A stretch of DNA of 64,000 nt from an uncultured Actinomycetes bacterium. GTDB taxonomy: Bacteria; Actinomycetota; Thermoleophilia; Gaiellales; JALYLC01. Location of the stretch: positions 168,863 to 232,862 of the forward strand of contig CAVUPB010000002.1 in assembly GCA_963743275.1 (NCBI GenBank), read 5' to 3'. Shown one piece after another: positions 5 through 15,010 of the stretch (position 1 is its first letter; every line of letters starts with the position of its first letter). The notes below the pieces were generated by a model. It was not told where the DNA came from and made no database searches. It saw only the letters and a program-made list of their open reading frames with translations. The translations under genes and the position numbers were made by a program.

Positions 5-1888
5 ATGAGCCCCGCCAACACCGTCGCGAATACCATGATGGATGTCGCGATCGACGGCAAGCAGCCACCGAAGAGCTGGGGCGAGTTCTACGACCGCATC
101 GCCGACGACTTCAAGCAGAGCGCCGAGATGGGCGGCGTCATGGTGGCGCTCGCGCACGGCGCCCAGGCGACGCACGGGACGACGGCACCCGCGGGCGAGG
201 GTGCGCCACCGCCGAGGAAGGCGCCTCCGGCGCCCGAGCCCGAGTCGGCCCGCACAGGGCCCGAGCCTGCCCCGGGCGCGCTGCCGGAGCCTGTCCCGCC
301 CCGGACGGGCGCGCCGAGGGGGGCCGCCGCGGTCGACGAGATCGTCGGCATCATGCCGTCCGAGACCGTGATGCAGCCCGCCGATCCGCGGGACGTCGCC
401 GGGGCGCAGGTCATGTACGAGAACTCGATCGTCGGCGAGCCCGGCGGTCCGGTGCGCGAGGCCGCCATGTATCGCAACACGGCGACCGGCGAGGTCATCG
501 TGATCCAGGGCGAGATCGACATCGTCCAGGTCGCGCCCGGCGAGGCACCCGCTCCCGGCGGCAAGGCGCAGCGCTGGAAGGAGATCCTCGACGCCCGGCC
601 GGACATCGGCAGCTGGGAGCTCGTCGCGCACTCCCACCCGCCCGTCATCGACCCGATCACGGGCGCGGAGCTGCCCCACACGCGCCTCCCGAGCGGGGCC
701 GCGGGCGACATTGGCACGCTGCTGGCCGAGGCGCAGGCGAGCGGGCAGGCGCGCAGCTCGCGCCTCGACTACCTCACCGAGGGCCGCGTCGAGCACACGA
801 TGTTCGGGGTCGACCCCGCATCGCAGCGACCGATCTGGATCGAGTTCATCGACCCCGTGACCGGGATCCGCCAGCCGCGCACGTTTGCCTCGATCGAGGA
901 GTACCACACGTTTCTGCTCGAGCGCGGGATCGACCCGGGCCCGATCCCGGACGCGGTCGCGACCGCCCTGCCTCCGCGCGCCGCGAAGGCGGGCGTCGCC
1001 CCCGACCTGCTCTCGGGCGAGGGCATCACGCGGCCACCGGACACGCTCGAGGAGCTCGCCCGCTCGAACGACGAGGTCGCGACCGCGCGCGGCACGCTCG
1101 CAGCGGGAACCGCGCGAGCCGAGCTGCTCGACCAGTCGGTCGTGGCGATCGCCGAGCGTGCGGTGGCCGAGTACCGCGCGGTGCGCGTCCAGGAGTGGGC
1201 GAGGCTGACGCACCGGCCCGCGTCGGAGATCCGCCTGACCGGCGAATCGCTCATGGGCACCTGCGGCCAGGGCCGCGATCTCACCGCGGAGGCGATCGCG
1301 TCGCTCACGATCGGGTCGGCCGTGCCCGTCACGATCGATCGCTACCAGGTCAACAACCTCGGCATCGACGAGCTCCACGGCTTCGCGGTGGTACGAGCGG
1401 GGGACGGAACCCCCTACCTCGTCGACGCCACCTACGCCCAGTTCCCGGGCGATCCCCTGACCGGCGAGGCGGCGCGCGCGGAGCAGGCAGCGAGCCCGGG
1501 GCGGGCGCGTGTGAGCAACGAGCTCCTGCGCAGTGGCCTCGTGGCGCTCGACGAGGTCACCGCGCGCAACTACCTGCTCAACGTGGGCGCGACCCCGGAG
1601 GTCGCGTCCGCCATGGCGCGCGAGCTGATGGCGGGAAAGCGGGCCGTCCTGCGCGAGGTCGTCCAGAACGGCAAGATCGAGCGCCGGGTGCCAGGCGAGG
1701 ATGTCCCCGAAGACCTGCGCGAGGCCGACGAGGGCCTGGGCGAGCACGGGCTGATCACGCAAGTCGACGAGATGATCGTGCTCACGCCCGTCGGCACGCC
1801 GGAATACGAGCTGCTGCGCACCCTGCGCGAGCGGCTGGGGAGGATCTCGCTCGTCACCCGCCCGGTCAAGCCGCGCTCGATCCTCTGA
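5..1888 (+). CDS. Large multidomain hypothetical protein, probably 5'-truncated by the window edge. Pro-rich linkers, a JAB/MPN-like module and a C-terminal Cys-His-Asp papain/transglutaminase-like module
   Basis: Long ORF with GC3-rich codons, open to position 2. Motifs read by eye: WELVAHSHPP...LPSGAAGD; LMGTCGQG...ELHGFAVV...YLVDATYAQF. Linkers such as PPPRKAPPAPEPESARTGPEPAP. Confidence 0.7.
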   Translation: MSPANTVANTMMDVAIDGKQPPKSWGEFYDRIADDFKQSAEMGGVMVALAHGAQATHGTTAPAGEGAPPPRKAPPAPEPESARTGPEPAPGALPEPVPPRTGAPRGAAAVDEIVGIMPSETVMQPADPRDVAGAQVMYENSIVGEPGGPVREAAMYRNTATGEVIVIQGEIDIVQVAPGEAPAPGGKAQRWKEILDARPDIGSWELVAHSHPPVIDPITGAELPHTRLPSGAAGDIGTLLAEAQASGQARSSRLDYLTEGRVEHTMFGVDPASQRPIWIEFIDPVTGIRQPRTFASIEEYHTFLLERGIDPGPIPDAVATALPPRAAKAGVAPDLLSGEGITRPPDTLEELARSNDEVATARGTLAAGTARAELLDQSVVAIAERAVAEYRAVRVQEWARLTHRPASEIRLTGESLMGTCGQGRDLTAEAIASLTIGSAVPVTIDRYQVNNLGIDELHGFAVVRAGDGTPYLVDATYAQFPGDPLTGEAARAEQAASPGRARVSNELLRSGLVALDEVTARNYLLNVGATPEVASAMARELMAGKRAVLREVVQNGKIERRVPGEDVPEDLREADEGLGEHGLITQVDEMIVLTPVGTPEYELLRTLRERLGRISLVTRPVKPRSIL

Positions 1889-1981: not shown

Positions 1982-3103
1982 TCAAGAGGGTGGTGCGTGT
2001 GGCTGGTTGGTGGCGATCGCGCGTCCGGCTTCCTCGGTGAAGGCGGGGCGCTCGGCGTTGCCGTGCGCGCGGATGTGGTGGTCGTGCAGCAGTTTGTGGT
2101 GGCGGGGGCAGAGCAGGATGAGGTTGTCGAGCTCGGTCCTTCCGCCGTGCTCGACCGGGATGACGTGGTGGGCTTCGAGTTCGCGGGTGGCGGTGCAGCC
2201 GGGGTACTGGCAGTGGGATGAGCGCTTGTGGAGTGCGCGCTGTTGCGCGTAGGAGGCGCAGCGTCCGACGCGTGTGTGCAGGAGGTCGCGGCCGTTTGGC
2301 TTGATCGCGAGACGGCGCGCGTCGCAGGCGAGCCGCTCGGCTGTCTCGGGGCTGAGTGGGCCGGCGCCCTCGAGCAGCGGCGGCCCATCCTCGCTGATGT
2401 GCACGATCAGGGTCGTGGGGCTGCGCTTCACAACGCCGTCGCCGCCGCTCTGGCGGGCGAGTGTGACGAGCGCGTCGGCGGCGGATTGTTGCCAGTCGAG
2501 GATCGTCCCGGCCTGCTTGTCGGCGGCGCGTTGGGTCTTGGCGATGCTCCAGATGGCCTGCTCGAAGGCGGCGCCCTGCTCGAGTGGCAGGCGCCCGTTG
2601 AAGGCGAGCTCGCGCCGCCCACGCGTCCAGGTCATGCTCAGCGCGCGCCGCTCGTAGAGCTCCTGATCGTCGGTCACTGTCGGCGGGGCGAGTGTGCGCG
2701 CGGCGAGCGCGATCTCGCTGGGCGGCTTGCCGACCGCGAGACGCGCCAGCTTGGCGTCGCTGGCCGGGGTTGCGTACTGGGCGGCGGCTGCGACCTGGTC
2801 GAGCGTCAGTGCGCCGGTGGAGAGGGCGTGGTCGAGTGCGGGCAGGCTGCGCAGCGCGCTGCTCGTGCGTGTGATGCGCGCGGCGCTGCGGTAGTCGCTG
2901 CTTGCGATCTGCGCGAGCCACTGCGCGCTCGAGCAGCAGCCTGCGGCCTGCCAGTCGCCGTCGTCGTCGGCCTCGCGCACGATCTCCGTGACGCGCTGCT
3001 TGATCCGCGCTTCCTGCGCGCAGAGCGAGCGCAGCTCGCGCCGGCGCGCCTCGCGGCGCCGCTCCCGCACCTGGTCGACCGTCCCATCCAGCGTGGCGAA
3101 CAT
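1982..3103 (-). CDS. DUF222 (13E12-repeat type) HNH endonuclease family protein
   Basis: C-terminal HNH signature CQYPGCT...LEAHHVIPVEHGG.T.LDNLILLCPRHHKLLH, with N-terminal DUF222-like helical region. Start set at the internal ATG (MFATLDG) rather than the ORF-track start. Confidence 0.88.
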   Translation of the reverse strand: MFATLDGTVDQVRERRREARRRELRSLCAQEARIKQRVTEIVREADDDGDWQAAGCCSSAQWLAQIASSDYRSAARITRTSSALRSLPALDHALSTGALTLDQVAAAAQYATPASDAKLARLAVGKPPSEIALAARTLAPPTVTDDQELYERRALSMTWTRGRRELAFNGRLPLEQGAAFEQAIWSIAKTQRAADKQAGTILDWQQSAADALVTLARQSGGDGVVKRSPTTLIVHISEDGPPLLEGAGPLSPETAERLACDARRLAIKPNGRDLLHTRVGRCASYAQQRALHKRSSHCQYPGCTATRELEAHHVIPVEHGGRTELDNLILLCPRHHKLLHDHHIRAHGNAERPAFTEEAGRAIATNQPHAPPS

Positions 3104-3270
3104 ACGTTCGTATCGTACCAGCCGGCCAGCCGCCAAAGTGTGCCGACTTTGTGCCGAAATGCAGCGACTTCTAAGCGACAACAACTCCGCGATCTACGGG
3201 CCGGCAGGCACGCTATGTCCCGCGCGCCGCCATTTGCCCGACGCGCGGGATGGCCGCGGCTCGAGTCCGT

Positions 3271-3576
3271 TCAAGCCTGAGTCAGGCAGGTCGCCTCGGC
3301 CTCGCGTTCGCCGGCGGTGCTCTTCGCCGCGTCGGTCATGTACTCCACGAATGTGAGGCCGGCCGCAACGCGACGGGCGATACAGGGAATCTTGGCCGGG
3401 AATTCGTACGTTCTGTAGACGTAGCGGTACATCGCCTGCTCGGACTTCGGGCCGACACATCTGTCGTAGACGGTGCCGACCGTCGTCAGGCGCGCGTTTC
3501 TCGGCACCGGCGACTTGTACATCAGGATCTCGGCATTGCCGATGCGATTTGCGCAACTGCGCTCGGCGGCTGTCAT
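3271..3576 (-). CDS. Small Cys-containing hypothetical protein in a locally lower-GC patch (uncertain gene)
   Basis: 101-codon ORF from an internal ATG (MTAAERSCANRIG...), with moderately GC3-biased codons but three AGA Arg codons. No recognisable domain, signal peptide or clear RBS. Confidence 0.3.
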   Translation of the reverse strand: MTAAERSCANRIGNAEILMYKSPVPRNARLTTVGTVYDRCVGPKSEQAMYRYVYRTYEFPAKIPCIARRVAAGLTFVEYMTDAAKSTAGEREAEATCLTQA

Positions 3577-3707
3577 CGGCAGGTGCAACCTGGCGGCTGC
3601 GACCTCGCGGTACACGGCCCCTGTCAGCCGGCAGGCGCGGAAGATGCCCTCGCAGGCTCGATGCCACGTCGCGCGACTGCTACGACCGGCACGTGCCGTG
3701 TTCGTCC

Positions 3708-4646
3708 ATGCGCTCACCAAGTGCGTGCGTGACGGTGCGCTCGGATAGGCTCGCCCGACCCGACCGCCGGCGACGACGAATTGACCGCCTCGCCCATGCC
3801 CAGCGCTACTTCGACGGGTGGAACGCCCACGACGCCGAGGCGATCGCGGCGACCTTCGCGCCGGGAGGCACGTACACGGACCCGCTCGTCCAGGGTCTCG
3901 ACCCCGGCGCCACGGGCGCGTACGCGGTGGGCCTCGCCGCCGCCTTCCCCGATCTCCGCTTCGAGATCGTCACTGCAGCGCTGACGGACGACGAAGCCGT
4001 CGCCGCGCAGTGGGTCATGCGAGGCACCAACAGCGGGTCGTTCAACGGCCTGCCGCCCACCGGCCGCGAGATCGCGCTCCCCGGCGCCGACTTCATCACG
4101 TTCGCCGACGACGGTACCGGCATCGCCACGGTCACGGGCTATTTCGACGGAGGTCGCGTCCCGCGCGACCTCGGCCTCGACGTCATCGTCCAGCCGTCCA
4201 CGATCGGGCCGTGGACGTTCGGCGTCTCGTCCCGCGCGACGGCTGGTCGCGATGCCCCCGCGGGTGCGCTCAGCGTGACCTTCCTCGAGGCGCGCAGCGA
4301 CGAGGAGGTCGAGGAGGTGCGCAGGCGCTCGCGCGACATCGTGCACGAGCTGCTGGGGGCGCCCGGATTCCTCTCGTTCGTCGGCGTGACCGTCGGGCGG
4401 CGGATGTACACCATGAGCGCCTGGGAGACCCCCGAGGCAGCGCGCGGCATCCGCATGAACCCGGCCCATCGCGAGGCCGTCGCTCAGATGTTCGGGCCGC
4501 GGCTCGCCTCCGGCGGGCAGACCGGGATCTGGGCGCCGTGGCATCTCAACGAGCCCATGGTGCGGTGCACGGCGTGCGAGAAGACGGTTCATGCCGCCGA
4601 CGTCTGCGCGTGCGGCGCGGCGCTGCCCGCCCCGCCGGCCTTCTGA
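3708..4646 (+). CDS. SnoaL-like (NTF2 fold) domain fused to an ABM/Dabb-like domain, with a C-terminal Cys cluster
   Basis: AQRYFDGWNAHDAEAIAATFAPGGTYTDP and NGLPPTGREI..PGADFITF are typical of SnoaL ester cyclases. The second half (MYTMSAWETPEAA..HREAV) is ABM-like. The tail reads CTACEKTVHAADVCACG. The start is uncertain; a GTG downstream is possible. Confidence 0.7.
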   Translation: MRSPSACVTVRSDRLARPDRRRRRIDRLAHAQRYFDGWNAHDAEAIAATFAPGGTYTDPLVQGLDPGATGAYAVGLAAAFPDLRFEIVTAALTDDEAVAAQWVMRGTNSGSFNGLPPTGREIALPGADFITFADDGTGIATVTGYFDGGRVPRDLGLDVIVQPSTIGPWTFGVSSRATAGRDAPAGALSVTFLEARSDEEVEEVRRRSRDIVHELLGAPGFLSFVGVTVGRRMYTMSAWETPEAARGIRMNPAHREAVAQMFGPRLASGGQTGIWAPWHLNEPMVRCTACEKTVHAADVCACGAALPAPPAF

Positions 4647-4803
4647 GCGGCGGCGGGAACGGGCGGCGCGCCGCCGGCTCGTCAGGGGTCATGCCCGACG
4701 GCGCCGCGCGCGGAGTGGTCGGGAAACCCGTGGCCGGCGTCCGTGGCGGCACCGATGTGCCGGCGATGCGGCGGGTGCGATGCTCCGTCATCGGGAGGTG
4801 CGC

Positions 4804-6664
4804 GATGCGCGACGAGGTCACGTTCGAAACCCGCGGGGCTCATGCCTTGCCGGCAGGGGGGCCGCTGCTCGTAGCCATCGTCGGCATCGACGGCTGCGGC
4901 AAGAGCGCCACGTTCCACAGGGCGCTCGAGTTGCTCGCACCGCAGCTCCCGGTCGCGGGGGTCGGCGACGAAGTCTGGAGTGGCGATCCCACGGTGCCTC
5001 TGCACGTACGCAACGACGTCCCGCACGCACGCATTGCCCGATTCGTCGGTGCGCGCGCGAAGGGGACATGGCGGGCCGGGATGTATCGCCGGCTCAAGCT
5101 GGTGGAGCTCGCCGAGCGAGCACGCACCTGCGAGCACCTGGCGCGTGCGGAGCGCCCATCGGTACTGCTGACCGACGGCAGCCCGCTCGTCAACACGGCT
5201 GCGTGGTCCGCGGCCCGCTACTACCGCGACGAGCTTGCGGGGGACTCGTCGGCCCTTCGCGACGTCATCGACTACCTCGGCCGGGCGAAGCCGATCCCCG
5301 CGCGCGAGATCCCTTCGTACCTGCGCCGCGCCTGGCCGCTCGTCGTCCTCAACCGGCTCAGCGGTGTCCGCTTCGCGCCTCCGGACCTCGTCGTGCTGCT
5401 CGAGATCGACCCGGCGGCGGCCCTGGCGCGGATCCGCGCCCGCGGGCGCCCCCTGCAGGCGCATGAGACGGAGCCGTTCCTGGCCGAGCTCGCACGCGCC
5501 TACGACCGCGTCTGTCGGCTGCTGCGAGACGAACGCGGGGTCGAGGTGTTGCGGATCCCGGTCGGCGAGGTCGCGCTCGAGGAGGTGGCCGCGCGGGTGG
5601 ACGCCGCCTGCCGGGAAGCCATCGAGGCGCGGCGCGCGGCGGCACCGTCTGATCGCATCCCGCCGACCTCCATCGAGGTCGTGGCCACGACGATCTCCGG
5701 CTCGCTGGCCGACCAGCGCAAGCTGCCGCGCATCGCGCCCGCGTTCGCCGCGCAAAGCACGCGCGACGTGCACGTCTACCCCGTCGGTAGCCACGCCGAA
5801 GCGCGGGACGTCGCACACCGCATCGTCGCCGCAGGTGGCCGCATACTCGTCTCGGCCGGGGGCGCCGGGACCTGCAACGCCGTGATCGAGGGCACCCACG
5901 TCGCGGGATCGGTACCCGCCGACGTGCGGCTGGGATTCTTGCGCAAGGGCTCCGCGGATCTGATCGGCAAGGCGCTCGGCGTCCCGGACGACCTCGACGG
6001 GGCCGTGTCCGCGATCGTCGACGGCATCGAGCATGGACGCTGCGTCGAGGCGAGCGTGCTCGCCTGCGAAGCGGACGACGTGCAGGGGCAGTCGCAGCTT
6101 CGCCATCTCGTCGGCTTCGGCGGCGTCGGCGTGTTCGGCGATGTGCCGCGCTTCACCGAGACGCGCGTCGTGAAGTACTACAAGGGTGTCCTCGGGCAGC
6201 TGTTCGGCGATCTCGGGCCGTTCTACACCGGGCTCACGCTCGCCACGCTGCGATGGATCTGGCGAGATGCGCTTGGCCGCGTGCCCGACGTCGAGATCGT
6301 GCTCGACGGCGAGCCGCTGCCGGGTCGGCGCTGGGCGACGATCGTCTGGGTGAACGGCGACCTCGGTCGCGACTTCCAGCTCGGCCGCGGGCTGCCTCTG
6401 GGCGCCGACGGCTTCCGGGTGATCGCGTTCCAGGACCGCGGCGTACGCGAAGGCGTGCGGCAGATCCTGGCCTGCCGCGACGCCTCGGTGCTCGACGATC
6501 CTGAGCGGTTCGCCGCGACCGTCCGCACCGTGCGCTCGCTCGAGGTCAGGCCCGCCGGCGATGCGGTGATGATGGTGAACCTCGACGGCCTTCGGATGCC
6601 GTCGCGAGGCACGATCCGCGTCTACGTGTCTGGGCGTATCCGCCTGATCGGCAGCGCGATGTGA
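4804..6664 (+). CDS. Fusion protein: thymidylate-kinase-like P-loop kinase domain plus diacylglycerol-kinase-type (DAGK_cat/LCB5-like) domain
   Basis: P-loop VAIVGIDGCGKS and lid-like LARIRARGRP. The C-terminal half has LVSAGGAGTCNAVIEG (a GGDGT variant) and GFLRKGSADLIGKALGVP. GGGAGG RBS sits before the ATG at 4804. The stop overlaps the next start (GTGA). Confidence 0.75.
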
Positions 6665-9234
6665 CCGTGCCGGTGGGGCGGGAAGGGGCGACGCTCGTCG
6701 ACCTCGTCGAGCAGTCGGCGGGCGTGCATGCCGACCGCGCAGCGCTCGTGACGCGAGTCGGCCTGCGCGACGATGTCTGGACCTACGCGCGGCTGTGGCG
6801 CGCGGTGATGGCGATCGCGGAGTGGCTCGTGGACGACGCGGCGGTGCGGCCGGGCGAGCGGGTCGCTCTGATCGGCCCGAACGAGCCGCGGTTGGTCGCG
6901 GCATCGGTGGGCGTCATGCTGGCGGGCGGGATCGTGGTCCCGGTCGAGCAGCACGCCACGCCGGCTTTCGTCGAGCGTGTGCTCACCCACACCCAGGCCG
7001 TGCTGCTGCTCGCCGGCGGCGACCCACCGAAGACCGGCTGCTGCCCTGTCCGTCCCCTCGCCTCGCTGCCGATCGAGCCGACCCGCCCCATCGTGCGGCG
7101 TCCCGTCGCGGCCGACGTCGCCGAAATCGTCTCGACCTCGGGGACGACGGGACATCCCAAGGCGGTCGTGCTGACGCACGCCAACGTGATGGCGAACGTA
7201 CGCTCCGTTCGCGGCATCCTGCCCCAGCGCGAGGACTATCGCCTGCTCTCGGTGCTACCGCTCTCGCACATGCTCGAGCAGACGGCCGGGCTCTTCGTGC
7301 CGCTGCTCTACGGAGCTTCGATCACCTACCCGTCGAGCCGGCAGCCGGCCGTGGTGCTCGACACGCTGCGGCGCGGGCGGGCGACGACGATGGTGGTCGT
7401 CCCGCAGGTGATGCAACTGCTTCTGGACGGCATCGAGCGGTCCGTCGAGCACGCAGGCGCGGGTCGGCGATGGCGTCGTTCGCAACGTCTCGCCGAGCGC
7501 CTTCCCTTCCGTGCCCGGCGCGTTGTCTTCCGCCCGGTGCTCGGCCGTCTCGGCGGTGCGCTCGACCTCCTGATCTCCGGTGGGGCCAGCTTGCCGGAGC
7601 CGCTCGCCGCCGCCTGGGAGCGCATGGGCGTCGCCGTGCTGAACGGGTACGGCACGACCGAGTGCTCACCGATCATCTCGACCACGAGTCTCGATGATCG
7701 CCCGCTGGGATCGGACGGGCCGCCCGTGCCGGGCGTCGAGGTCCGGATCGACTCGGAGGGCGAGATCCAGGTGCGCGGAGCAAGCGTGACCGCCGGCTAC
7801 TGGCACGACGACGAGGCGACCGCGGCGGCCTTCACTCCGGACGGCTGGTACCGAACCGGTGACACGGGCGCGCTCGACGCGCGAGGACACCTGCACGTCC
7901 GCGGGCGCCTGCGCGACCTGATCGTGTTGGCAAGCGGGCTCAAGGTGCAGCCGGAGGATGTGGAACAGGCGTTGCTCGCCGAACCGCAGATCGCCGACTG
8001 CGTCGTGCTCACCCGGCCCGACGAGCGCGGGACGCCGCACATCCACGCGGCGGTCAGGTGCGACCCCGCCATTCCGGCGGCAGAGCGCCGGCCCCGGGTG
8101 GCCGAGGCCGTGCGGCGTGCCAACGCCGTGCTCGCCGCGCACCAGCGCATCAGCGGGTTCACGCTCTGGGAAGAGGACGACTTTCCGCGCACCGCCGCGC
8201 GCAAGGTACGCCGCGGCGAGGTCGCCGCTCGCCTCGCCGGCGAGCCCGCACACGACCTCGCGCCGTCGTCGCCGCCGGCCCTGGGCGACGAGCGGCTCGC
8301 CCGAGCGCGCGAGCTGCTGGCGAGCGTGTGCGACGTCCCCGAGGAGTCCCTTGCACCCGAGGCGGACCTGGCGCTCGACCTCGGACTCGACTCGGTCGGC
8401 CAACTCGAGCTCGCGGTCGCGCTCGAGGGCGCGCTGGGCATCCGGTTCGAGGACAGCGATCTCGCACGCATCAGGACCGTCGGCGACCTGCTCGGCATGC
8501 TCGACGAGCACGAGCGAGTCGCGGTCGAGGCGGTCACGGAGCCGGCGGCCTGGGCGCGGGCGGCACCGGCGCGGGCCGCGCGCGAGGCGCTCCAGCGGGG
8601 TGTCCTCTTCCCCGCGAGCAGGCTGGCGTGCCGGCCGTTCGTCGTGGACGGGACGCAGCATCTGAGTGGCTTGTCGCCACCGCTCCTGCTCGTCGCCAAC
8701 CACGCGAGCCACCTCGACGCGGTGTCGATCCTGCGGGCGCTTCCGGCGCACCTGCGCCGCCGTACGGCTGTCGCCGCCGCGGCGGACACGTTCTTCACGT
8801 CGCGCCTGCTCGGCGGCGTCGTGTCGCTCGTGCTCTGCGCGTTCCCGTTCTCGCGCACGGGGCGGACGCGCGAGAGCCTCGAAAGCTGCGGCATGCTCGC
8901 CGACGATGGGTGGTCGGTGCTCGTCTTCCCCGAGGGCACGCGCTCGCTGACCGGGGGCATGGGGCCATTCCGCGGCGGCATCGGTGTCCTCGCGTTGGGG
9001 TTGCGGGCGCCCGTCGTCCCGATCTCGGTCACAGGCACGTTCGAGCTCCTGCCGAAGGGTGCGCGGCGCCCCGGCCGCGGGCCGGTGTCGGTGTGGTTCG
9101 GGCCGCCGGTCGAGCTCCCCGCGGGCGTCGAGCACGAGCAGGCGACGGCGCTGATCGAAGACGCGGTGCGCGGTCTCGTGGAGAGAGCCGCGCGCGGGCG
9201 TCGTTCCCGTACCGAACACGCAAGGCACCAGTGA
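6661..9234 (+). CDS. Tri-domain protein: fatty acyl-AMP/ACP ligase, acyl carrier domain and PlsC-type lysophospholipid acyltransferase
   Basis: Adenylation cores TSGTTGHPKAV, NGYGTTE, YRTGDTG and PRTAARKVRR. Carrier motif LDLGLDSVGQLE. Acyltransferase motifs VANHASHLD (HX4D) and VFPEGTRS. Confidence 0.9.
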   Translation: MTVPVGREGATLVDLVEQSAGVHADRAALVTRVGLRDDVWTYARLWRAVMAIAEWLVDDAAVRPGERVALIGPNEPRLVAASVGVMLAGGIVVPVEQHATPAFVERVLTHTQAVLLLAGGDPPKTGCCPVRPLASLPIEPTRPIVRRPVAADVAEIVSTSGTTGHPKAVVLTHANVMANVRSVRGILPQREDYRLLSVLPLSHMLEQTAGLFVPLLYGASITYPSSRQPAVVLDTLRRGRATTMVVVPQVMQLLLDGIERSVEHAGAGRRWRRSQRLAERLPFRARRVVFRPVLGRLGGALDLLISGGASLPEPLAAAWERMGVAVLNGYGTTECSPIISTTSLDDRPLGSDGPPVPGVEVRIDSEGEIQVRGASVTAGYWHDDEATAAAFTPDGWYRTGDTGALDARGHLHVRGRLRDLIVLASGLKVQPEDVEQALLAEPQIADCVVLTRPDERGTPHIHAAVRCDPAIPAAERRPRVAEAVRRANAVLAAHQRISGFTLWEEDDFPRTAARKVRRGEVAARLAGEPAHDLAPSSPPALGDERLARARELLASVCDVPEESLAPEADLALDLGLDSVGQLELAVALEGALGIRFEDSDLARIRTVGDLLGMLDEHERVAVEAVTEPAAWARAAPARAAREALQRGVLFPASRLACRPFVVDGTQHLSGLSPPLLLVANHASHLDAVSILRALPAHLRRRTAVAAAADTFFTSRLLGGVVSLVLCAFPFSRTGRTRESLESCGMLADDGWSVLVFPEGTRSLTGGMGPFRGGIGVLALGLRAPVVPISVTGTFELLPKGARRPGRGPVSVWFGPPVELPAGVEHEQATALIEDAVRGLVERAARGRRSRTEHARHQ

Positions 9235-9260
9235 GCAGGGGCAGCGTCGCGCCCCATACG

Positions 9261-10904
9261 TCAGTGCCCTCCCGAGCGCTCCGCCGCCGCGGCGTTCGCT
9301 TCCACTCGCTGGAGCGCCACCGCGTCGGCCTCCGAGCGCGCCCGCGAATTGCCCGTCACGACGGCGAGGAAGTCGTCGCGCTCGAGCGCATAGAGCCGGG
9401 CGTCGGTGATGGCCCGCACGGTCGCCGTTCGCGGCACGTCCTGGAGCAACGCGATCTCGCCGAAGAAGTCCCCGGGGCCGGCGTCGATGGTCTGGGAGCC
9501 CGCATCGATCGTGAGCCCGCCGCTGCCGACGACATAGAAGCGGTCGCCGGCGTCGCCGGCGTGAATCACGACGTCTCCGGCCGCGACGTCGACCTGGACG
9601 AGATGCGAGGCGATGCGCTCCTTGGCGACGAGTGAGAGCGGGGCGAAGACCGCGACGCGCTCGATCAGGTCGAGCTGCGATGCGGGCGCAACGTCCGAGT
9701 CGATCCCGAGCAGCCGCCGATGAGAGACGAGGACGAGCACGGGGAGGATCGCGCCGACCGCGACGAACGCCGGCCGTAGCCCGATCAGGCGGATGACCGC
9801 AGGCGCGACGAACGAGCCGATCGCCGTCGCACCCATCGCAAGACCCCAGGTCACGCCCAGCACGCGGGTCAGTACGTCGTCGGGGACGGTGCGCTGGAGG
9901 AGCGTGAACCCCGAGACGTCGACGACGCTGTTCGCGGCGCCGATCACCGCGAGGAGGCCGACCATGGCCGCGGCGTACGGGAGCGGCGCCATCAGCGCGA
10001 TCGGGATGCCCCAGAGGACGAGGGCCCACGCGAACGGCGGCGCGAGTCGATCGCCGCGCAGCGAGACCGCGGCGAGCGCGCCGACCAGGCCCCCTGCTCC
10101 GATCGCCGCCGTCAGGTATCCGACCTCCGTCGCGCCGTCGTGGAGCACCTGGTACGCCGCGACGACGATCAGCACGTTCAGGCACCCGCGGACGAACGTC
10201 TGCGAGGCGATCAGCCCCACGAGCAGGCGCGCGCGGGGGACGTCGCCGATTGCCCTGAACCCTTCCAGGAGGCCGACTCCCGACGCGTTCGCGGGAGCGT
10301 CGATGCGCCCCGGGACCGAGACGCGCGCGAGCAGGGCGGCCGACACAAGGAGCGCAGCCGCGCCGGCCGCGAAGACCGCTGCGACATCGGCGAAGGCGAC
10401 GAGCACTCCGGCAGCGAGCGGACCGAGGAGGGTGCCGAGGCTCTCGAGCGTCGAGGTCGCTCCGTTCGCGGCGATCAGCTCCCTCGCCGTGCGCGCCAGC
10501 GACGGCAGCAGCGCGATCAGGGCGGGCCGGAACAGCGTCGTGCAGACGCCTATCGCAGACGCGGCGGCGAAGACCATGATGCGATCGTCCATGAGGGCGC
10601 CCGCGGCCGAGAGCGCGAGCGCAGCCGTGCCCAGGAGCACGATCCCGAGGAGGAACCGCTCGCGCCGGAAGCGGTCGCCGAGCGACGTTGCGAACGGCGC
10701 GATCAGGGCCGCGGGGAGCAGTCGCATGAGGCCGGCGATTCCGACCGCCGTGGATCCGCCGTGGCCGTAGGCGAACACCCCCAGCGCCACGAAGTGCGCC
10801 CACTCGGCGCAGACCGAGGCGCCCCAGGCCAGTTCGGCGCGGCGGATGTCCGCGTTCTGAGCCGTGACGGCGAGGGCGCCGAACGCCTGGCGTGGCCGGG
10901 GCAC
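9261..10904 (-). CDS. MFS transporter with C-terminal cyclic-nucleotide-binding domain
   Basis: About 12 hydrophobic segments, then a cNMP-type beta-roll GDFFGEIALLQDVPRTATVRA. GTG start. Confidence 0.85.
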   Translation of the reverse strand: MPRPRQAFGALAVTAQNADIRRAELAWGASVCAEWAHFVALGVFAYGHGGSTAVGIAGLMRLLPAALIAPFATSLGDRFRRERFLLGIVLLGTAALALSAAGALMDDRIMVFAAASAIGVCTTLFRPALIALLPSLARTARELIAANGATSTLESLGTLLGPLAAGVLVAFADVAAVFAAGAAALLVSAALLARVSVPGRIDAPANASGVGLLEGFRAIGDVPRARLLVGLIASQTFVRGCLNVLIVVAAYQVLHDGATEVGYLTAAIGAGGLVGALAAVSLRGDRLAPPFAWALVLWGIPIALMAPLPYAAAMVGLLAVIGAANSVVDVSGFTLLQRTVPDDVLTRVLGVTWGLAMGATAIGSFVAPAVIRLIGLRPAFVAVGAILPVLVLVSHRRLLGIDSDVAPASQLDLIERVAVFAPLSLVAKERIASHLVQVDVAAGDVVIHAGDAGDRFYVVGSGGLTIDAGSQTIDAGPGDFFGEIALLQDVPRTATVRAITDARLYALERDDFLAVVTGNSRARSEADAVALQRVEANAAAAERSGGH

Positions 10905-12392: not shown

Positions 12393-13313
12393 ATGTGCCG
12401 GATCCTGGCCTACCTCGGCGAGCCGCTCTCGCTGCAGCGTCTGCTCTTCGACACCGACAACAACCTCGTCCGGCAGTCGTACAGCCCGCGGATGATGAAT
12501 ACGTTCCTCAACCTCGCGGGCTTCGGCATGAAGGCGTGGGATCCGACGTCGTTGCGGCCCGAGGATCCGTTCACCTACCGCGCGACCACTCTGCCGTCGT
12601 TCGACCGCAACCTCCGCGCGATCTCGTCGAAGCTCGCGCCGACGTGCCTGGTCGCCCACGTCCGCGGGGTCACCTACTCCGGCGACGCGGTCGTCGCCGA
12701 GACGAACCTGCACCCCTTCCACTTCGCCGGCGCTCGCGTCGTCCTCGCGCACAACGGGCACCTGCGCCAGTTCTCGCGCATGCGCTACGCGCTGCTCGAG
12801 CACGTGCGGCCGGAGCTTGCCGCGTGCATCGAGGGCACGACCGACTCCGAATGGATCTACGCGCTGGTGCTCTCGCAGCTCGACGATCCCTGCGGGCTGC
12901 CGGAGACGCGCGAGCTGGCCGATGCCACCGCCGGCGCCCTCCGCATCCTGCGCAGCGTGCGCGCGGCGCACGGCATCGACACCTCTTCGCCGGTCAATCT
13001 CTGCGTGAGCACCGGCCGCTCCGTCGTCGCGACGCGCCTCTCGTTCGACTACGGCTGGTACCCGCCGGAGGACGAGATGCTCGAGACCGACCTCCCGTTC
13101 GTGAGCCTCTGGTATGCGATCGGCGGCGAGTACGCCGAGCGCGACGGCGACTGGCAGATGACGGCCGGCGATCCGCCGCGCTCGGTGCTCATCGCCTCCG
13201 AGCCGCTCACGGCCGACTTCTCGACCTGGTTCGAGGTTCCCGAATACTCGATGCTGACTGCCGAGCTGACGCCGGAAGGAGTCGACTTCGAGACGCGAGA
13301 CCTCGATGTCTGA
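12393..13313 (+). CDS. Class II (Ntn) glutamine amidotransferase, EgtC/YafJ-like
   Basis: N-terminal MCRILAY (Cys2 nucleophile), HVRGVT...NLHPF and AHNGHL motifs. Confidence 0.85.
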   Translation: MCRILAYLGEPLSLQRLLFDTDNNLVRQSYSPRMMNTFLNLAGFGMKAWDPTSLRPEDPFTYRATTLPSFDRNLRAISSKLAPTCLVAHVRGVTYSGDAVVAETNLHPFHFAGARVVLAHNGHLRQFSRMRYALLEHVRPELAACIEGTTDSEWIYALVLSQLDDPCGLPETRELADATAGALRILRSVRAAHGIDTSSPVNLCVSTGRSVVATRLSFDYGWYPPEDEMLETDLPFVSLWYAIGGEYAERDGDWQMTAGDPPRSVLIASEPLTADFSTWFEVPEYSMLTAELTPEGVDFETRDLDV

Positions 13314-14281
13314 CCGCGAGACCGCCGACTTCCTCGCCACGGTTCCCCTCCTCGCGGGGCGAGACGAAACGGACCTCGAGGCGCTCGCGCGGGTCGTGCG
13401 GCGGCGGGCGGTACCGGCGGGCGAGACCCTCTGGCACCAGGGGGAGCAGGCGCGGGAGCTGCTCTTCATCGTCGACGGCTCCGTCTCGGCGTCGCTGCGC
13501 CTGCCGGGGGATCGCACGGTGGAGGTCTGGACAGCGGGTCGGGGCGAGGCCGTCGGAGAGATCGCGCTGCTCGACGGCAAGGGCCACACGATGAGCGTGC
13601 GCGCGAACGAGACCGCGACGGTGCTCGCGCTCGGCCGGCTGGAGTTCGCGGCGCTGCTCGCGCGCCAGGATCCATCGGCGTTCAGGCTGAAGCGCGGCCT
13701 GGCCGCGCTCTTCACCTCGCGCATGCGCGCCCAGTTCGGGAACCTCGCCGTCTCGCTCGGCGGCGAGCCGGCCGGCCCGCGGGCCGAGGATGCGGCTCGG
13801 ACGCTCGCCGAGCTGCGGTACTGCGGTCCGCCCGACAGCAAGTACGTGCGTCGCATGGCGACCTTCCACGACTTCGATGCGCTCGCCCTCTGGGGCTTCC
13901 TGACGTCGGGGCGGTATGCCGAGTGCCCTGCGGGGCGCGCGCTGCTCGCCGAGGGCGCGCCGTCGGCGGCCTGCTATCTCACGATCAACGGCGCGGTCGA
14001 GAAGGTGCTGCTGCGCGGCGACCGGCGTATCCGCGTCGGACTGGCGGGACCGGGGAGGACGTTCGGCTACGAGGGCCTCATCGACGGCAGCGCCATCTCC
14101 CGTGACCGCGATCACGCGCGAGCGCGCGCTCCTGCTCGTGTTGCCGCCCGGCCCGTTCGAGCAGCTCTTCAACGGCGAAGACGCCGTCTCGCGCGTCTTC
14201 CTCGACGTGATCCAGCGGGAGCTGGTGACCACGTTGCGCCAGGCGCTGCGCCAGCATGCTCGCCTCGCTGCGAGCCTTTAG
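13306..14281 (+). pseudogene. Protein with two cyclic-nucleotide-binding domains and no evident output domain; apparent 1-nt frameshift near 14088-14100
   Basis: Domain 1 has GEAVGEIALLDGKGHTMSVRA. Domain 2 begins RTFGYEGLIDGS in frame 1 and continues PSPVTAITRERALLLVLPPGPFEQLF in the next frame (ORF 13916-14281). The total length is not a multiple of 3. Confidence 0.75.
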
Positions 14282-14311
14282 CGCACACGACGGTCGCCTC
14301 GAGGTCGCGGG

Positions 14312-15010
14312 GTGCGCTCAAACCACCCTCAGCTGATGGATACGGAGCGGCCCGAGCGGCGCCGATGCCTGTTGGACGGTGAGGGACGACTCTGCATTCC
14401 GAATGACGCAGGCCGCGTGACGCTCGCCGAGGAGCCTGCGGGCGACAGCAGGCGGTCGGCGGCTCTCGATGGTTGGGTCGCGGCATTCGATCGCGAGGTG
14501 GAGCAGAGCGGCGATTTCGCCGCGAGCATCGCAGCGATGACGGCCCACGGCTGCTTCGACGTACGCGCGGTCGTCGAGCGCTGGATCCGCGCGAACCCGA
14601 GCGGCGAGGCGACCGTCGTGCCGTTGCGGCCGGCGCTCCAGGAGCCCGAGCCGCCGCAGCCCGTACCCGAGGAAGCCCCGGTACCCGAAGAAGCCGCCGC
14701 ACCACCGGAGCCGGCAGCGGACGCGGAACGGACGTCGCCGAGGCCGGAGGCCGCGTCGTCCCCGGACGTCGCGTATTTCCACGGGTTGCTGCAAGGCGGG
14801 ATCGAGCGCGCGCAGATCGACGAGGCCTTCCCGGACTTCCGGCTCGTGATCGACGAGGCGGTCCGCCAGTACGAGGCGGCGGCGCCGATCCTCAGCGTCG
14901 TCCCCCCGGGTCCGTCGCGCGAGGATCTCAACGACGAGATCCGTGGCATGCGGCAGGAGCTCCAGGCATCCGGGACACGCGGCCGGTGGCGCCGGCGCGC
15001 GCGCGACTGA
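14312..15010 (+). CDS. Hypothetical protein with a Pro/Glu-rich central linker
   Basis: GC3-biased ORF with no recognisable domain. Start is ambiguous (GTG 14312 or ATG 14336). Confidence 0.45.
   Translation: MRSNHPQLMDTERPERRRCLLDGEGRLCIPNDAGRVTLAEEPAGDSRRSAALDGWVAAFDREVEQSGDFAASIAAMTAHGCFDVRAVVERWIRANPSGEATVVPLRPALQEPEPPQPVPEEAPVPEEAAAPPEPAADAERTSPRPEAASSPDVAYFHGLLQGGIERAQIDEAFPDFRLVIDEAVRQYEAAAPILSVVPPGPSREDLNDEIRGMRQELQASGTRGRWRRRARD

Follow-up and report, generated by a model that had tools for sequence, protein, structure and literature searches.

Two overlapping genes in the window

The DNA analyzed here, referred to as the window, is a 64,000-bp stretch from an uncultured Actinomycetes bacterium (Thermoleophilia; Gaiellales; contig CAVUPB010000002.1, positions 168,863 to 232,862 of the forward strand) with a G+C content of ~72%. 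On its plus strand lie two overlapping genes. Gene 1 (4805..6664) encodes a 619-residue protein in which a P-loop kinase domain resembling thymidylate kinase (TMK-like) is fused to a domain of the diacylglycerol kinase/sphingosine kinase (DAGK/SphK) fold, and gene 2 (6661..9234) encodes an 857-residue protein in which Pfam recognized a fatty-acid adenylation domain, an acyl carrier protein (ACP) domain and a PlsC/AGPAT-type acyltransferase (AT). A widespread module combines an AT, a TMK-like domain and a DAGK-like domain with, in many loci, a CdsA-like protein, and the pair represents one of its arrangements. This extends an earlier reading of the same DNA, made from the sequence alone, which had described the two genes as a candidate self-contained lipid acylation module; all of the motifs that the sequence-only reading had quoted from the two genes were found, and their coordinates are given below.

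The kinase fusion had been placed at 4804. The fusion itself is borne out by the open reading frame (ORF) and start codon, Pfam, homologous proteins and an AF2 model, but a start at 4804 is out of frame. The ATG at 4805 is in frame with the ORF ending at 6664, and a GGGAGG lies 7 nt 5' of it. In-frame ATGs at 4766 and 4691 are alternative candidate starts, but the homologues of gene 1 align only from about residue 20 onward. The stop codon of gene 1, TGA (6662-6664), overlaps the start codon of gene 2, GTG (6661-6663), in the sequence GTGA (6661..6664, plus strand); this overlap and the adenylation-ACP-PlsC/AGPAT order of gene 2 were found by Pfam and ORF analysis just as they had been described. 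With either of the alternative gene 2 starts, GTG 6667 and GTG 6673, the coupling would stay tight. A promoter and terminator scan of window positions 3000-9600 found nothing above chance, and hydropathy analysis found no convincing transmembrane segments in the gene 1 or gene 2 protein.

The kinase fusion encoded by gene 1

Full-length homologues of gene 1 number 228; they are ~620 residues long and 50-58% identical to it. An AF2 model built with 82 homologues as input had a predicted local distance difference test (pLDDT) value of 90.4 and a predicted template modelling score (pTM) of 0.71, the latter suggesting that the two kinase domains have a defined mutual orientation. Invariant in the family are the P-loop G.DG.GKS, the segment DG.P..N...W and the lid RI..RG...Q.HE of the TMK-like domain, as well as ATT.SGS..D..K, SAGG.GT, FLRKGSADL.GK, G.GG...FG, YKG......GD.GPF, NG.LG and N.DG.

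The TMK-like domain comprises residues 21-285 (4865..5659, plus strand), as judged by Foldseek and by a profile match to deoxynucleoside kinases (dNK) and thymidylate kinases (TMPK). Its P-loop, VGIDGCGKS (4880..4906), carries the motif G.DG.GKS, conserved at a level of at least 90% in 74 such domains, with D29, G30, G32 and K33 invariant. The lid-like segment ARIRARGRPLQAHE (5426..5467), in which R209, R213, Q218, H220 and E221 are invariant, aligns with the E. coli Tmk lid segment KRARARGELDRIEQE. With these arginines and the P-loop unchanged throughout the family, the domain looks like an active kinase. Resemblance to thymidylate kinases is distant in other respects: hhalign against E. coli Tmk gave a convincing alignment for the P-loop and lid only, and the Pfam match of the window protein to Thymidylate_kin (PF02223), at 20.8 bits, is below the cutoff of 27. 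The orthologous domain in the locus of Amphritea sp. HPY (L078) scores 38.3 bits, above that cutoff. When the N half was modelled alone (pLDDT 91.1, pTM 0.89), Foldseek matched it to thymidylate and deoxynucleoside kinases with E values of 4e-8 to 5e-6, template modelling scores (TMt) of at most 0.74 and 14-22% identity. It exceeds those kinases in length by ~80 residues, and conserved basic residues (K86, K98 and R105) lie in an insertion. After strand 3, an invariant D124-G125 stands, matched by motif position, where TMPKs have the Arg of DR(Y/H/F), a motif that we take to be Asp-Arg, so that the domain has Asp-Gly there. A phmmer search with the TMK-like domain over 1.84 billion representative proteins returned only 192, whose sizes and matched regions agree with standalone, AT::TMK and TMK::DAGK proteins. 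This kinase family is thus small and essentially confined to the architectures of the module.

The DAGK-like domain, residues 288-619 (5666..6661, plus strand), has both subdomains of the DAGK/SphK fold. Pfam DAGK_cat (PF00781) matched residues 297-408 at 36.4 bits, above the cutoff of 23.6. With the C half, Foldseek found SphK1 (3vzb, E 1e-14), 4wer (TMt 0.77), DgkB (2qv7) and YegS; these matches had TMt values of 0.65-0.77 over 336-396 columns, covering both subdomains. Because SphK1, DgkB and YegS (E 1e-14 to 1e-9) are better fold matches than the NAD kinases (~1e-7), the domain is probably a lipid kinase relative rather than a NAD kinase relative. Three motifs were located. The first, SAGGAGT (5852..5872), aligns to GGDGT of DgkB and YegS and lacks the Asp. 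Across 78 DAGK-like domains from all phyla, the Asp position is held by Ser in 37, Ala in 34, Gly in 7 and Asp in none. The second loop, LRKGSADLIGK (5939..5971), is part of FLRKGSADL.GK, conserved at a level of at least 90% in the 78 domains, and aligns to MGTVNDFGR of DgkB. The third, VNLDG (6575..6589), has N, D and G invariant in 78/78 domains, and we infer that it is the counterpart of the C-terminal acidic motif (DGE-type) of DgkB-type kinases. The hhalign comparison with YegS gave a convincing alignment for the GGDGT and second-loop regions only, and details of the DgkB catalytic residues were not found in the papers searched.

The sequence-only reading had noted the Asp to Ala change and had allowed that the module might be a degenerate remnant. 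Its strong conservation speaks otherwise: because the surrounding motifs are invariant while the Asp has been lost family-wide, the DAGK-like domains are a distinct subfamily, with the Asp-less GGDGT motif as its hallmark.

The tri-domain protein encoded by gene 2

The architecture of gene 2 is common to more than 1200 homologues of ~840 residues. The adenylation (ANL) domain, residues 17-526 (6709..8238, plus strand), was recognized by AMP-binding (PF00501; E 5.6e-66, 223 bits, above cutoff) plus AMP-binding_C_3, and contains, on the plus strand, the motifs TSGTTGHPKAV (7135-7167), NGYGTTE (7642-7662), YRTGDTG (7849-7869) and PRTAARKVRR (8185-8214). Among NCBIfam models, it matches long-chain fatty-acid CoA ligases best. 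The carrier (PP-binding) domain (8308..8499, plus strand; PF00550, 51.2 bits, above cutoff) has the motif LDLGLDSVGQLE at 8374-8409, with Ser578 encoded by 8392-8394, and its best NCBIfam matches are ACPs of the fatty acid synthase (FAS) type. The AT (8674..9030, plus strand) matched PF01553 at 68.5 bits against a cutoff of 23. It has the HX4D motif as ANHASHLD (8695-8718), VFPEGTRS at 8923-8946, and the further lysophospholipid acyltransferase (LPLAT) blocks FPFSR and VVPISV; the isolated domain matched AGP_acyltrn and Aas-type models best. Profile and fold evidence thus supports both the AT and the DAGK-like domain that had been proposed.

Conservation was examined in 32 full-length homologues of gene 2. 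The adenylation cores are invariant and the A10 lysine, K515, nearly so; carrier Ser578 is invariant, as are N680, H681, H684, D686 and P757-R761 of the AT. The earlier proposal that the gene 2 protein loads a fatty acid in cis on its own carrier and transfers it fits this pattern of predicted ligase, carrier and AT catalytic residues. The window AT scored a median of 71 bits against the ATs associated with kinases in the type I operons described below, versus 39 bits against E. coli PlsC or the AT of E. coli Aas. Since it is clearly nearer to the former, the kinase-associated ATs form one lineage.

The module in other genomes

Relatives were scanned at one genome per species (122 relatives), and 80 loci were fetched, in which the domains were located by iterated profile searches. 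An AT is adjacent in 57/79 loci that have a DAGK-like domain; another 16/79 could not be judged because the contig ends within 3 kb. In the 63 judgeable loci, then, the AT is a neighbor in 57 (90%), within ~3 kb and mostly at less than 250 bp, and the adjacency of the two genes or of their constituent domains, which the sequence-only reading had named as a check, was upheld. TMK-like and DAGK-like domains occur together in essentially every locus. Three domains, namely the PlsC/AGPAT AT, the TMPK-fold P-loop kinase and the Asp-less DgkB/SphK-fold domain, travel together in more than 10 phyla, and the gene pair, judged by this conservation, is not a chance neighborhood.

Two main arrangements were seen. 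In type II, that of the window, a TMK::DAGK fusion precedes or lies beside an adenylation-ACP-AT (A-ACP-AT) gene. The 26 type II loci are from Acidimicrobiia, Thermoleophilia, Chloroflexota and Dehalococcoidia, with one Omnitrophota locus and one metagenome-assembled genome (MAG) labelled Pseudomonadota. In type I, found in 30 loci, a tight operon consists of a cdsA-like gene, an AT::TMK fusion of ~480 residues and a DAGK-like protein of ~335 residues. Its hosts are Bacteroidota, Gemmatimonadota, Zixibacteria, Aminicenantes, Planctomycetota, KSB1-related groups, Gammaproteobacteria and others, and include a cultured carrier, Amphritea sp. HPY (L078), in which Pfam assigned Acyltransferase and Thymidylate_kin to a single protein and DAGK_cat to the one after it. 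The same type I operon was present in the gene tables of three further contigs, and the protein collection held 344 AT::TMK clusters. From these arrangements, the conserved unit is AT plus TMK-like plus DAGK-like, often with a CdsA-like protein, and the ligase-ACP part is a lineage-specific addition.

Individual loci had features of their own. An AT::TMK fusion of type I (P0263), on a 6,959-bp contig, carries the label of a 'Candidatus Hodarchaeota archaeon' MAG, and may reflect contamination or transfer into an Asgard archaeon. In a Gemmatimonadota locus (L084, 9456-11725), genes for a 186-residue protein with no family match and for a FadD-type long-chain acyl-CoA ligase come after the type I operon in the same orientation; this ligase may be an unfused counterpart of the one in gene 2. 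Two genes downstream of the Amphritea operon is a ceramidase-family (PF05875) gene (L078, 12877-13629), seen at this locus only. In a Chloroflexia MAG the tri-domain gene is immediately followed by a 4HBT thioesterase gene (L092, 12560-13054), and in an actinomycete MAG a fatty-acid desaturase gene lies nearby (L091, 14384-15487); both have to do with lipids, but neither is conserved. In a Betaproteobacteria MAG (L081, 7268-8017) and in Binataceae (L082/L083, 7295-8008), the A-ACP-AT gene is preceded by a gene for a ~240-residue protein without a Pfam match, joined to it by a stop/start overlap; the two copies are 41% identical. The tri-domain enzyme thus has a second kind of partner, as uncharacterized as the kinase fusion. 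The idea that this partner is a stand-alone TMK-like domain was dropped, as it has no similarity to the TMK-like domain, and it is also unrelated to the 200-residue VTT-like protein of L094.

CdsA-like and CDP-alcohol transferase partners

A CdsA-like gene is adjacent in 32 loci. The type I CdsA-like membrane proteins gave faint or weak CTP_transf_1 matches only. Of the CdsA signature, which we take to be S-x-[LIVMF]-K-R-x4-K-D ... G-H-G-G-x-x-D-R-x-D, they lack the KRxxxxKD and GHGG elements, and keep only D-L-G...P-G-x-G...D...S. The CdsA partners in L025, L029 and L039 retain nearly the full signature, and the Omnitrophota CdsA bridges the type I protein to canonical CdsA. By these alignments the type I protein is a divergent CdsA relative.

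In four type II lineages, L025 (Dehalococcoidia), L029 (Limnocylindrales), L039 (Omnitrophota) and L094, the cluster contains canonical CdsA and a CDP-alcohol phosphatidyltransferase resembling phosphatidylinositol phosphate (PIP) synthase. The best NCBIfam matches of the transferase, to archaetidylinositol-phosphate synthase and PIP synthase, are below equivalog cutoffs (88.7 vs 180 bits). The gene order of L094, all on one strand, is DUF2157, TMK::DAGK, CDP-alcohol (CDP-OH) transferase, CdsA, a weakly VTT/DedA-like protein and A-ACP-AT. None of the 30 type I loci has the transferase, and most type II loci, the window among them, lack it too. In Binataceae, the tri-domain gene lies beside a PIP-synthase-like transferase gene and cdsA, without the kinases. 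The recurrent partners all belong, by their family assignments, to CDP-diacylglycerol-dependent phospholipid synthesis. In the 64-kb window, no CdsA-like, PIP-synthase-like/CDP-OH transferase, DUF2157 or VTT-like gene was found. The pair cannot, then, be called self-contained, as the sequence-only reading had it: the conserved unit often includes a CdsA-like protein, and the window has none.

Two further membrane proteins occur in some loci. One, conserved between L094 (11697-12299) and L025 (7996-8898), has sub-threshold VTT/DedA matches (E 0.002-0.004), which hint at a lipid-transport component. The other is a DUF2157 protein encoded directly upstream of the kinase fusion in several Anaerolineae-type loci (L002, L009, L012, L013, L015 and L040), among them the ones without a nearby acyltransferase, and likewise in the full L094 cluster (6943-7923).

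Comparison with known systems

The nearest functional parallel to gene 2 is E. coli Aas, which also has a PlsC-type AT and an ANL fatty-acid ligase in one polypeptide. Aas re-acylates lyso-lipids with free fatty acid by way of free ACP, and its partner is the transporter LplT. The ligase parts of gene 2 and Aas are 30% identical and the AT parts 27.5% identical. Alignment showed the domain orders to be opposite, as had been stated: the AT precedes the ligase in Aas, whereas in gene 2 the ligase comes first and a carrier is embedded. Also unlike Aas, the gene 2 protein is partnered by a two-kinase fusion rather than by LplT, the transporter gene of the major facilitator superfamily (MFS) beside gene 2 not being conserved. 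Gene 2 would work like Aas but, with its order reversed and its carrier embedded, is not a member of the Aas family.

A second parallel, compared by description, is ElbD of Myxococcus xanthus ether-lipid biosynthesis, in which ACS, ACP and AGPAT-like domains likewise occur in one protein. The sequence-only reading had given ElbD the order ligase-ACP-reductase-acyltransferase; this differs from the published order, in which an N-terminal FAR1-like domain is followed by ACS, ACP and AGPAT-like domains (PMC9131029). A Pfam scan found no FAR1-like reductase domain in gene 2, and no elbB-, elbC- or elbE-type neighbors were recognized in the window. According to the same review, ElbD-like proteins that lack the FAR1 domain exist in other phyla and had been remarked on before, with no lipid data (PMC9131029), and gene 2, by analogy, fits that description. 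Fusions of fatty acyl-AMP ligases (FAAL) with lysophospholipid acyltransferases have been mentioned as uncharacterized (PMC8460268).

The kinase domains likewise have recognizable parents and depart from them. With DgkB, YegS and SphK1 the DAGK-like domain shares the two-subdomain fold, a DAGK_cat score above cutoff and an alignable second loop, G(S/T)x(N/A)D; it differs in having Ser, Ala or Gly for the GGDGT Asp, in its constant pairing or fusion with a TMPK-like domain, and in its low identity (12-16%). What the TMK-like domain has in common with thymidylate and deoxynucleoside kinases is its overall fold, along with the P-loop GxDGxGKS and the lid arginines; it differs in having Asp-Gly for Asp-Arg, the ~80 extra residues, a sub-cutoff Pfam score and lipid-gene contexts only. 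Gene 1 thus appears to depart from each parent family in a single defining feature, lacking the GGDGT Asp of one and the DR(Y/H/F) Arg of the other.

The L094, L025, L029 and L039 clusters, with their AGPAT-type AT, CdsA and PIP-synthase-like transferase, resemble the canonical route from phosphatidate through CDP-diacylglycerol to PIP. They differ from it in an acyl donor predicted to be made in cis from free fatty acid, in two extra kinase domains and in a transferase well short of the PIP synthase cutoff; type I departs further, its CdsA-like protein lacking the CdsA signature. NCBIfam has no model specific for any component of the module, no solved structure is close by sequence, and literature searches for the kinase fusion or the operon found nothing relevant. 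The statement in the sequence-only reading that no characterized example of the pair was known accordingly held, in that no characterized pathway, curated family model or paper was found for the pair. The module is built from known enzyme families in a new combination.

Proposed function

We tentatively take the conserved module, with a confidence somewhat short of an even chance, to be one for the assembly or salvage of a phosphatidate-type lipid, and the pair to be its form in Actinomycetota and Chloroflexota. The product would most likely be made from a lipid alcohol and a free fatty acid and would then feed CDP-activation. The DAGK-like domain would bind a membrane lipid alcohol, with a mono- or diacylglycerol-type alcohol the likeliest candidate, and the kinase fusion would turn it into a (lyso)phosphatidate-type product. 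We infer, as the sequence-only reading had suggested, that the fusion in this way makes the acceptor for gene 2. The gene 2 protein would adenylate a free fatty acid, attach it to the phosphopantetheinyl carrier within the same chain and, through the AGPAT domain, esterify the lyso-acceptor to give phosphatidate. CdsA would then make the CDP-lipid for head-group attachment, by means of the dedicated CdsA in other lineages and presumably of a housekeeping one here. The TMK-like domain would carry out a second ATP-dependent phosphotransfer; the weakest of the assignments is that it converts CMP to CDP in support of CDP-activation. This cytidine-nucleotide role is proposed because of the chemistry of the fold and the partners that handle CTP and CMP. 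Neither protein having transmembrane segments, both may work as peripheral membrane enzymes.

Several observations count against the phosphatidate proposal. No AT was found within at least 3 kb on both sides of the DAGK-like domain in 6/79 loci, the tri-domain protein is also found without the kinases, following the ~240-residue partner in Betaproteobacteria and Binataceae, and CdsA-like and CDP-OH transferase genes are missing from the window. To our knowledge, the GGDGT Asp is near-universal in the DAGK/SphK/NADK/PFK superfamily, and with its absence from every one of the 78 domains ATP-dependent kinase activity of the DAGK-like domain is not assured. The nucleotide substrate of the TMK-like domain is made uncertain by the Asp-Gly substitution and the extra residues, and the domain is fused to the AT or to the DAGK-like domain, never to CdsA. 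For every member, moreover, the function of the module is predicted from sequence and models.

The missing Asp is the starting point of the best-placed alternative, which we think rather unlikely: that catalysis falls to the TMK-like domain alone, which phosphorylates the lipid, while the Asp-less DAGK-like domain extracts or presents the lipid or acts as a regulator. Such a division of labor would account for the loss of the Asp in 78/78 domains and for the co-occurrence of the two domains in essentially every locus, with fusion in type II, and it is consistent with the defined orientation suggested by the pTM of the two-domain model. The TMK fold also has structural matches among dNK-type kinases, which phosphorylate hydroxyl groups. 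The glycine-rich loops ATT.SGS..D..K, SAGG.GT and KGSADL.GK in the N-subdomain of the DAGK-like domain, however, are invariant across phyla, a pattern usual for sites that have kept their binding of a phosphorylated ligand, the N-x-D-G of the domain is invariant too, and we know of no precedent for a lipid kinase of the TMPK fold.

We also considered that both domains act on lipid in succession, the DAGK-like domain making a lipid monophosphate and the TMK-like domain converting it to a lipid of the diacylglycerol-pyrophosphate type, with the divergent CdsA-like protein handling the product. A phosphomonoester is the acceptor of nucleoside monophosphate kinases, whose fold the TMK-like domain matches, and the fusion partners of the domain are lipid rather than nucleotide enzymes. 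Gly in place of the DR(Y/H/F) Arg and the insertion with basic K86, K98 and R105 also count in favor, and the type I CdsA-like protein, lacking KRxxxxKD and GHGG, could have a changed substrate. Even so, this double phosphorylation seems quite unlikely. The idea is purely inferential, the clusters with canonical CdsA and a PIP-synthase-like enzyme fit ordinary CDP-diacylglycerol chemistry, and we know of no bacterial pathway of lipid-pyrophosphate synthesis of this type.

The PIP/AIP-synthase-like transferase, found in four kinase-bearing lineages and beside the tri-domain gene in Binataceae, raised the further possibility that one or both kinase domains supply a head group by phosphorylating a soluble alcohol, for example inositol or glycerol, for the transferase, with the AT acting on ordinary lysophosphatidate. 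The DAGK_cat superfamily includes sugar and ribose kinases, NAD kinases being among the fold matches, and the dNK relatives phosphorylate a ring hydroxyl. A head-group kinase is nevertheless very unlikely because the CDP-alcohol transferase is rare, occurring in few lineages and in 0/30 type I loci, while the AT is nearly always present. The fold, moreover, matches lipid kinases better than NAD kinases, and the fusion partner is an acyltransferase, not a CDP-alcohol transferase.

Least probable by far is a role outside membrane lipids, whether in secondary-metabolite lipoinitiation, in an anti-phage system or by chance adjacency, for although A-ACP didomains are typical starters of lipopeptide pathways and SnoaL-like genes are found upstream in the window as well as close to the homologous locus L092, no other window neighbor is conserved beside the module, PADLOC gave no significant matches, no nonribosomal peptide synthetase or polyketide synthase genes were present in the loci examined in detail, adjacency is kept across more than 10 phyla, and the recurrent partners are CdsA, the CDP-OH transferase and the DedA-like protein.

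What the module would add

The phosphatidate proposal, if the route proves to be salvage-fed or parallel to the usual phosphatidate and CDP-lipid route, would add a pathway to bacterial membrane biogenesis. Its hosts include groups dominant in soils, sediments and groundwater (Chloroflexota, Acidimicrobiia, Thermoleophilia, Gemmatimonadota, Zixibacteria, Aminicenantes and Bacteroidota), and almost nothing is known of their lipid biochemistry. The module offers two kinase folds with altered catalytic motifs, and it gives a functional context to the 'ElbD-like without FAR1' (PMC9131029) and 'FAAL fused to lysophospholipid acyltransferase' (PMC8460268) proteins, which have received no more than brief mention in the literature. 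Amphritea sp. HPY, as a cultured carrier, makes it directly testable.

A bolder possibility, which we consider unlikely, is that the module represents a so far undescribed route to activated phospholipid precursors through two kinase folds with altered active sites, involving either a TMPK-fold kinase acting on a lipid or lipid phosphate or a DgkB/SphK-fold kinase that works without the GGDGT Asp, with the product in either case tied to fatty-acid activation in cis and to a CdsA-derived enzyme of the module's own. The first option, if true, would be the first lipid kinase of the TMPK fold and could make a pyrophosphate lipid; the second may use a different phosphoryl donor. Either would mean a parallel, salvage-fed phospholipid pathway in many uncultured phyla.

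Surroundings of the pair in the window

Other neighbors of the pair in the window are an upstream SnoaL-like gene and HNH, PALP and MFS-cNMP (cyclic nucleotide monophosphate) genes, none of which was found near the module in the 80 loci, and the conserved unit in the window is, on this comparison, exactly the two overlapping genes. A secondary-metabolite cluster or an LplT-like partner was rejected, the window neighbors not being kept with the module in those loci, as was an anti-phage system, for which PADLOC gave only weak generic P-loop matches.

Convergent with gene 2 is a gene for an MFS transporter fused to a cyclic-nucleotide-binding domain (9261-10904, minus strand), and 4 kb further on is a gene for a protein with two cNMP-binding domains (13306-14382, plus strand); neither is conserved with the module. 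Upstream lie a 627-residue ORF with coding-like codon bias and no Pfam match (5-1888, plus strand) and a gene for a 400-residue protein with a C-terminal HNH nuclease domain (1982-3184, minus strand).

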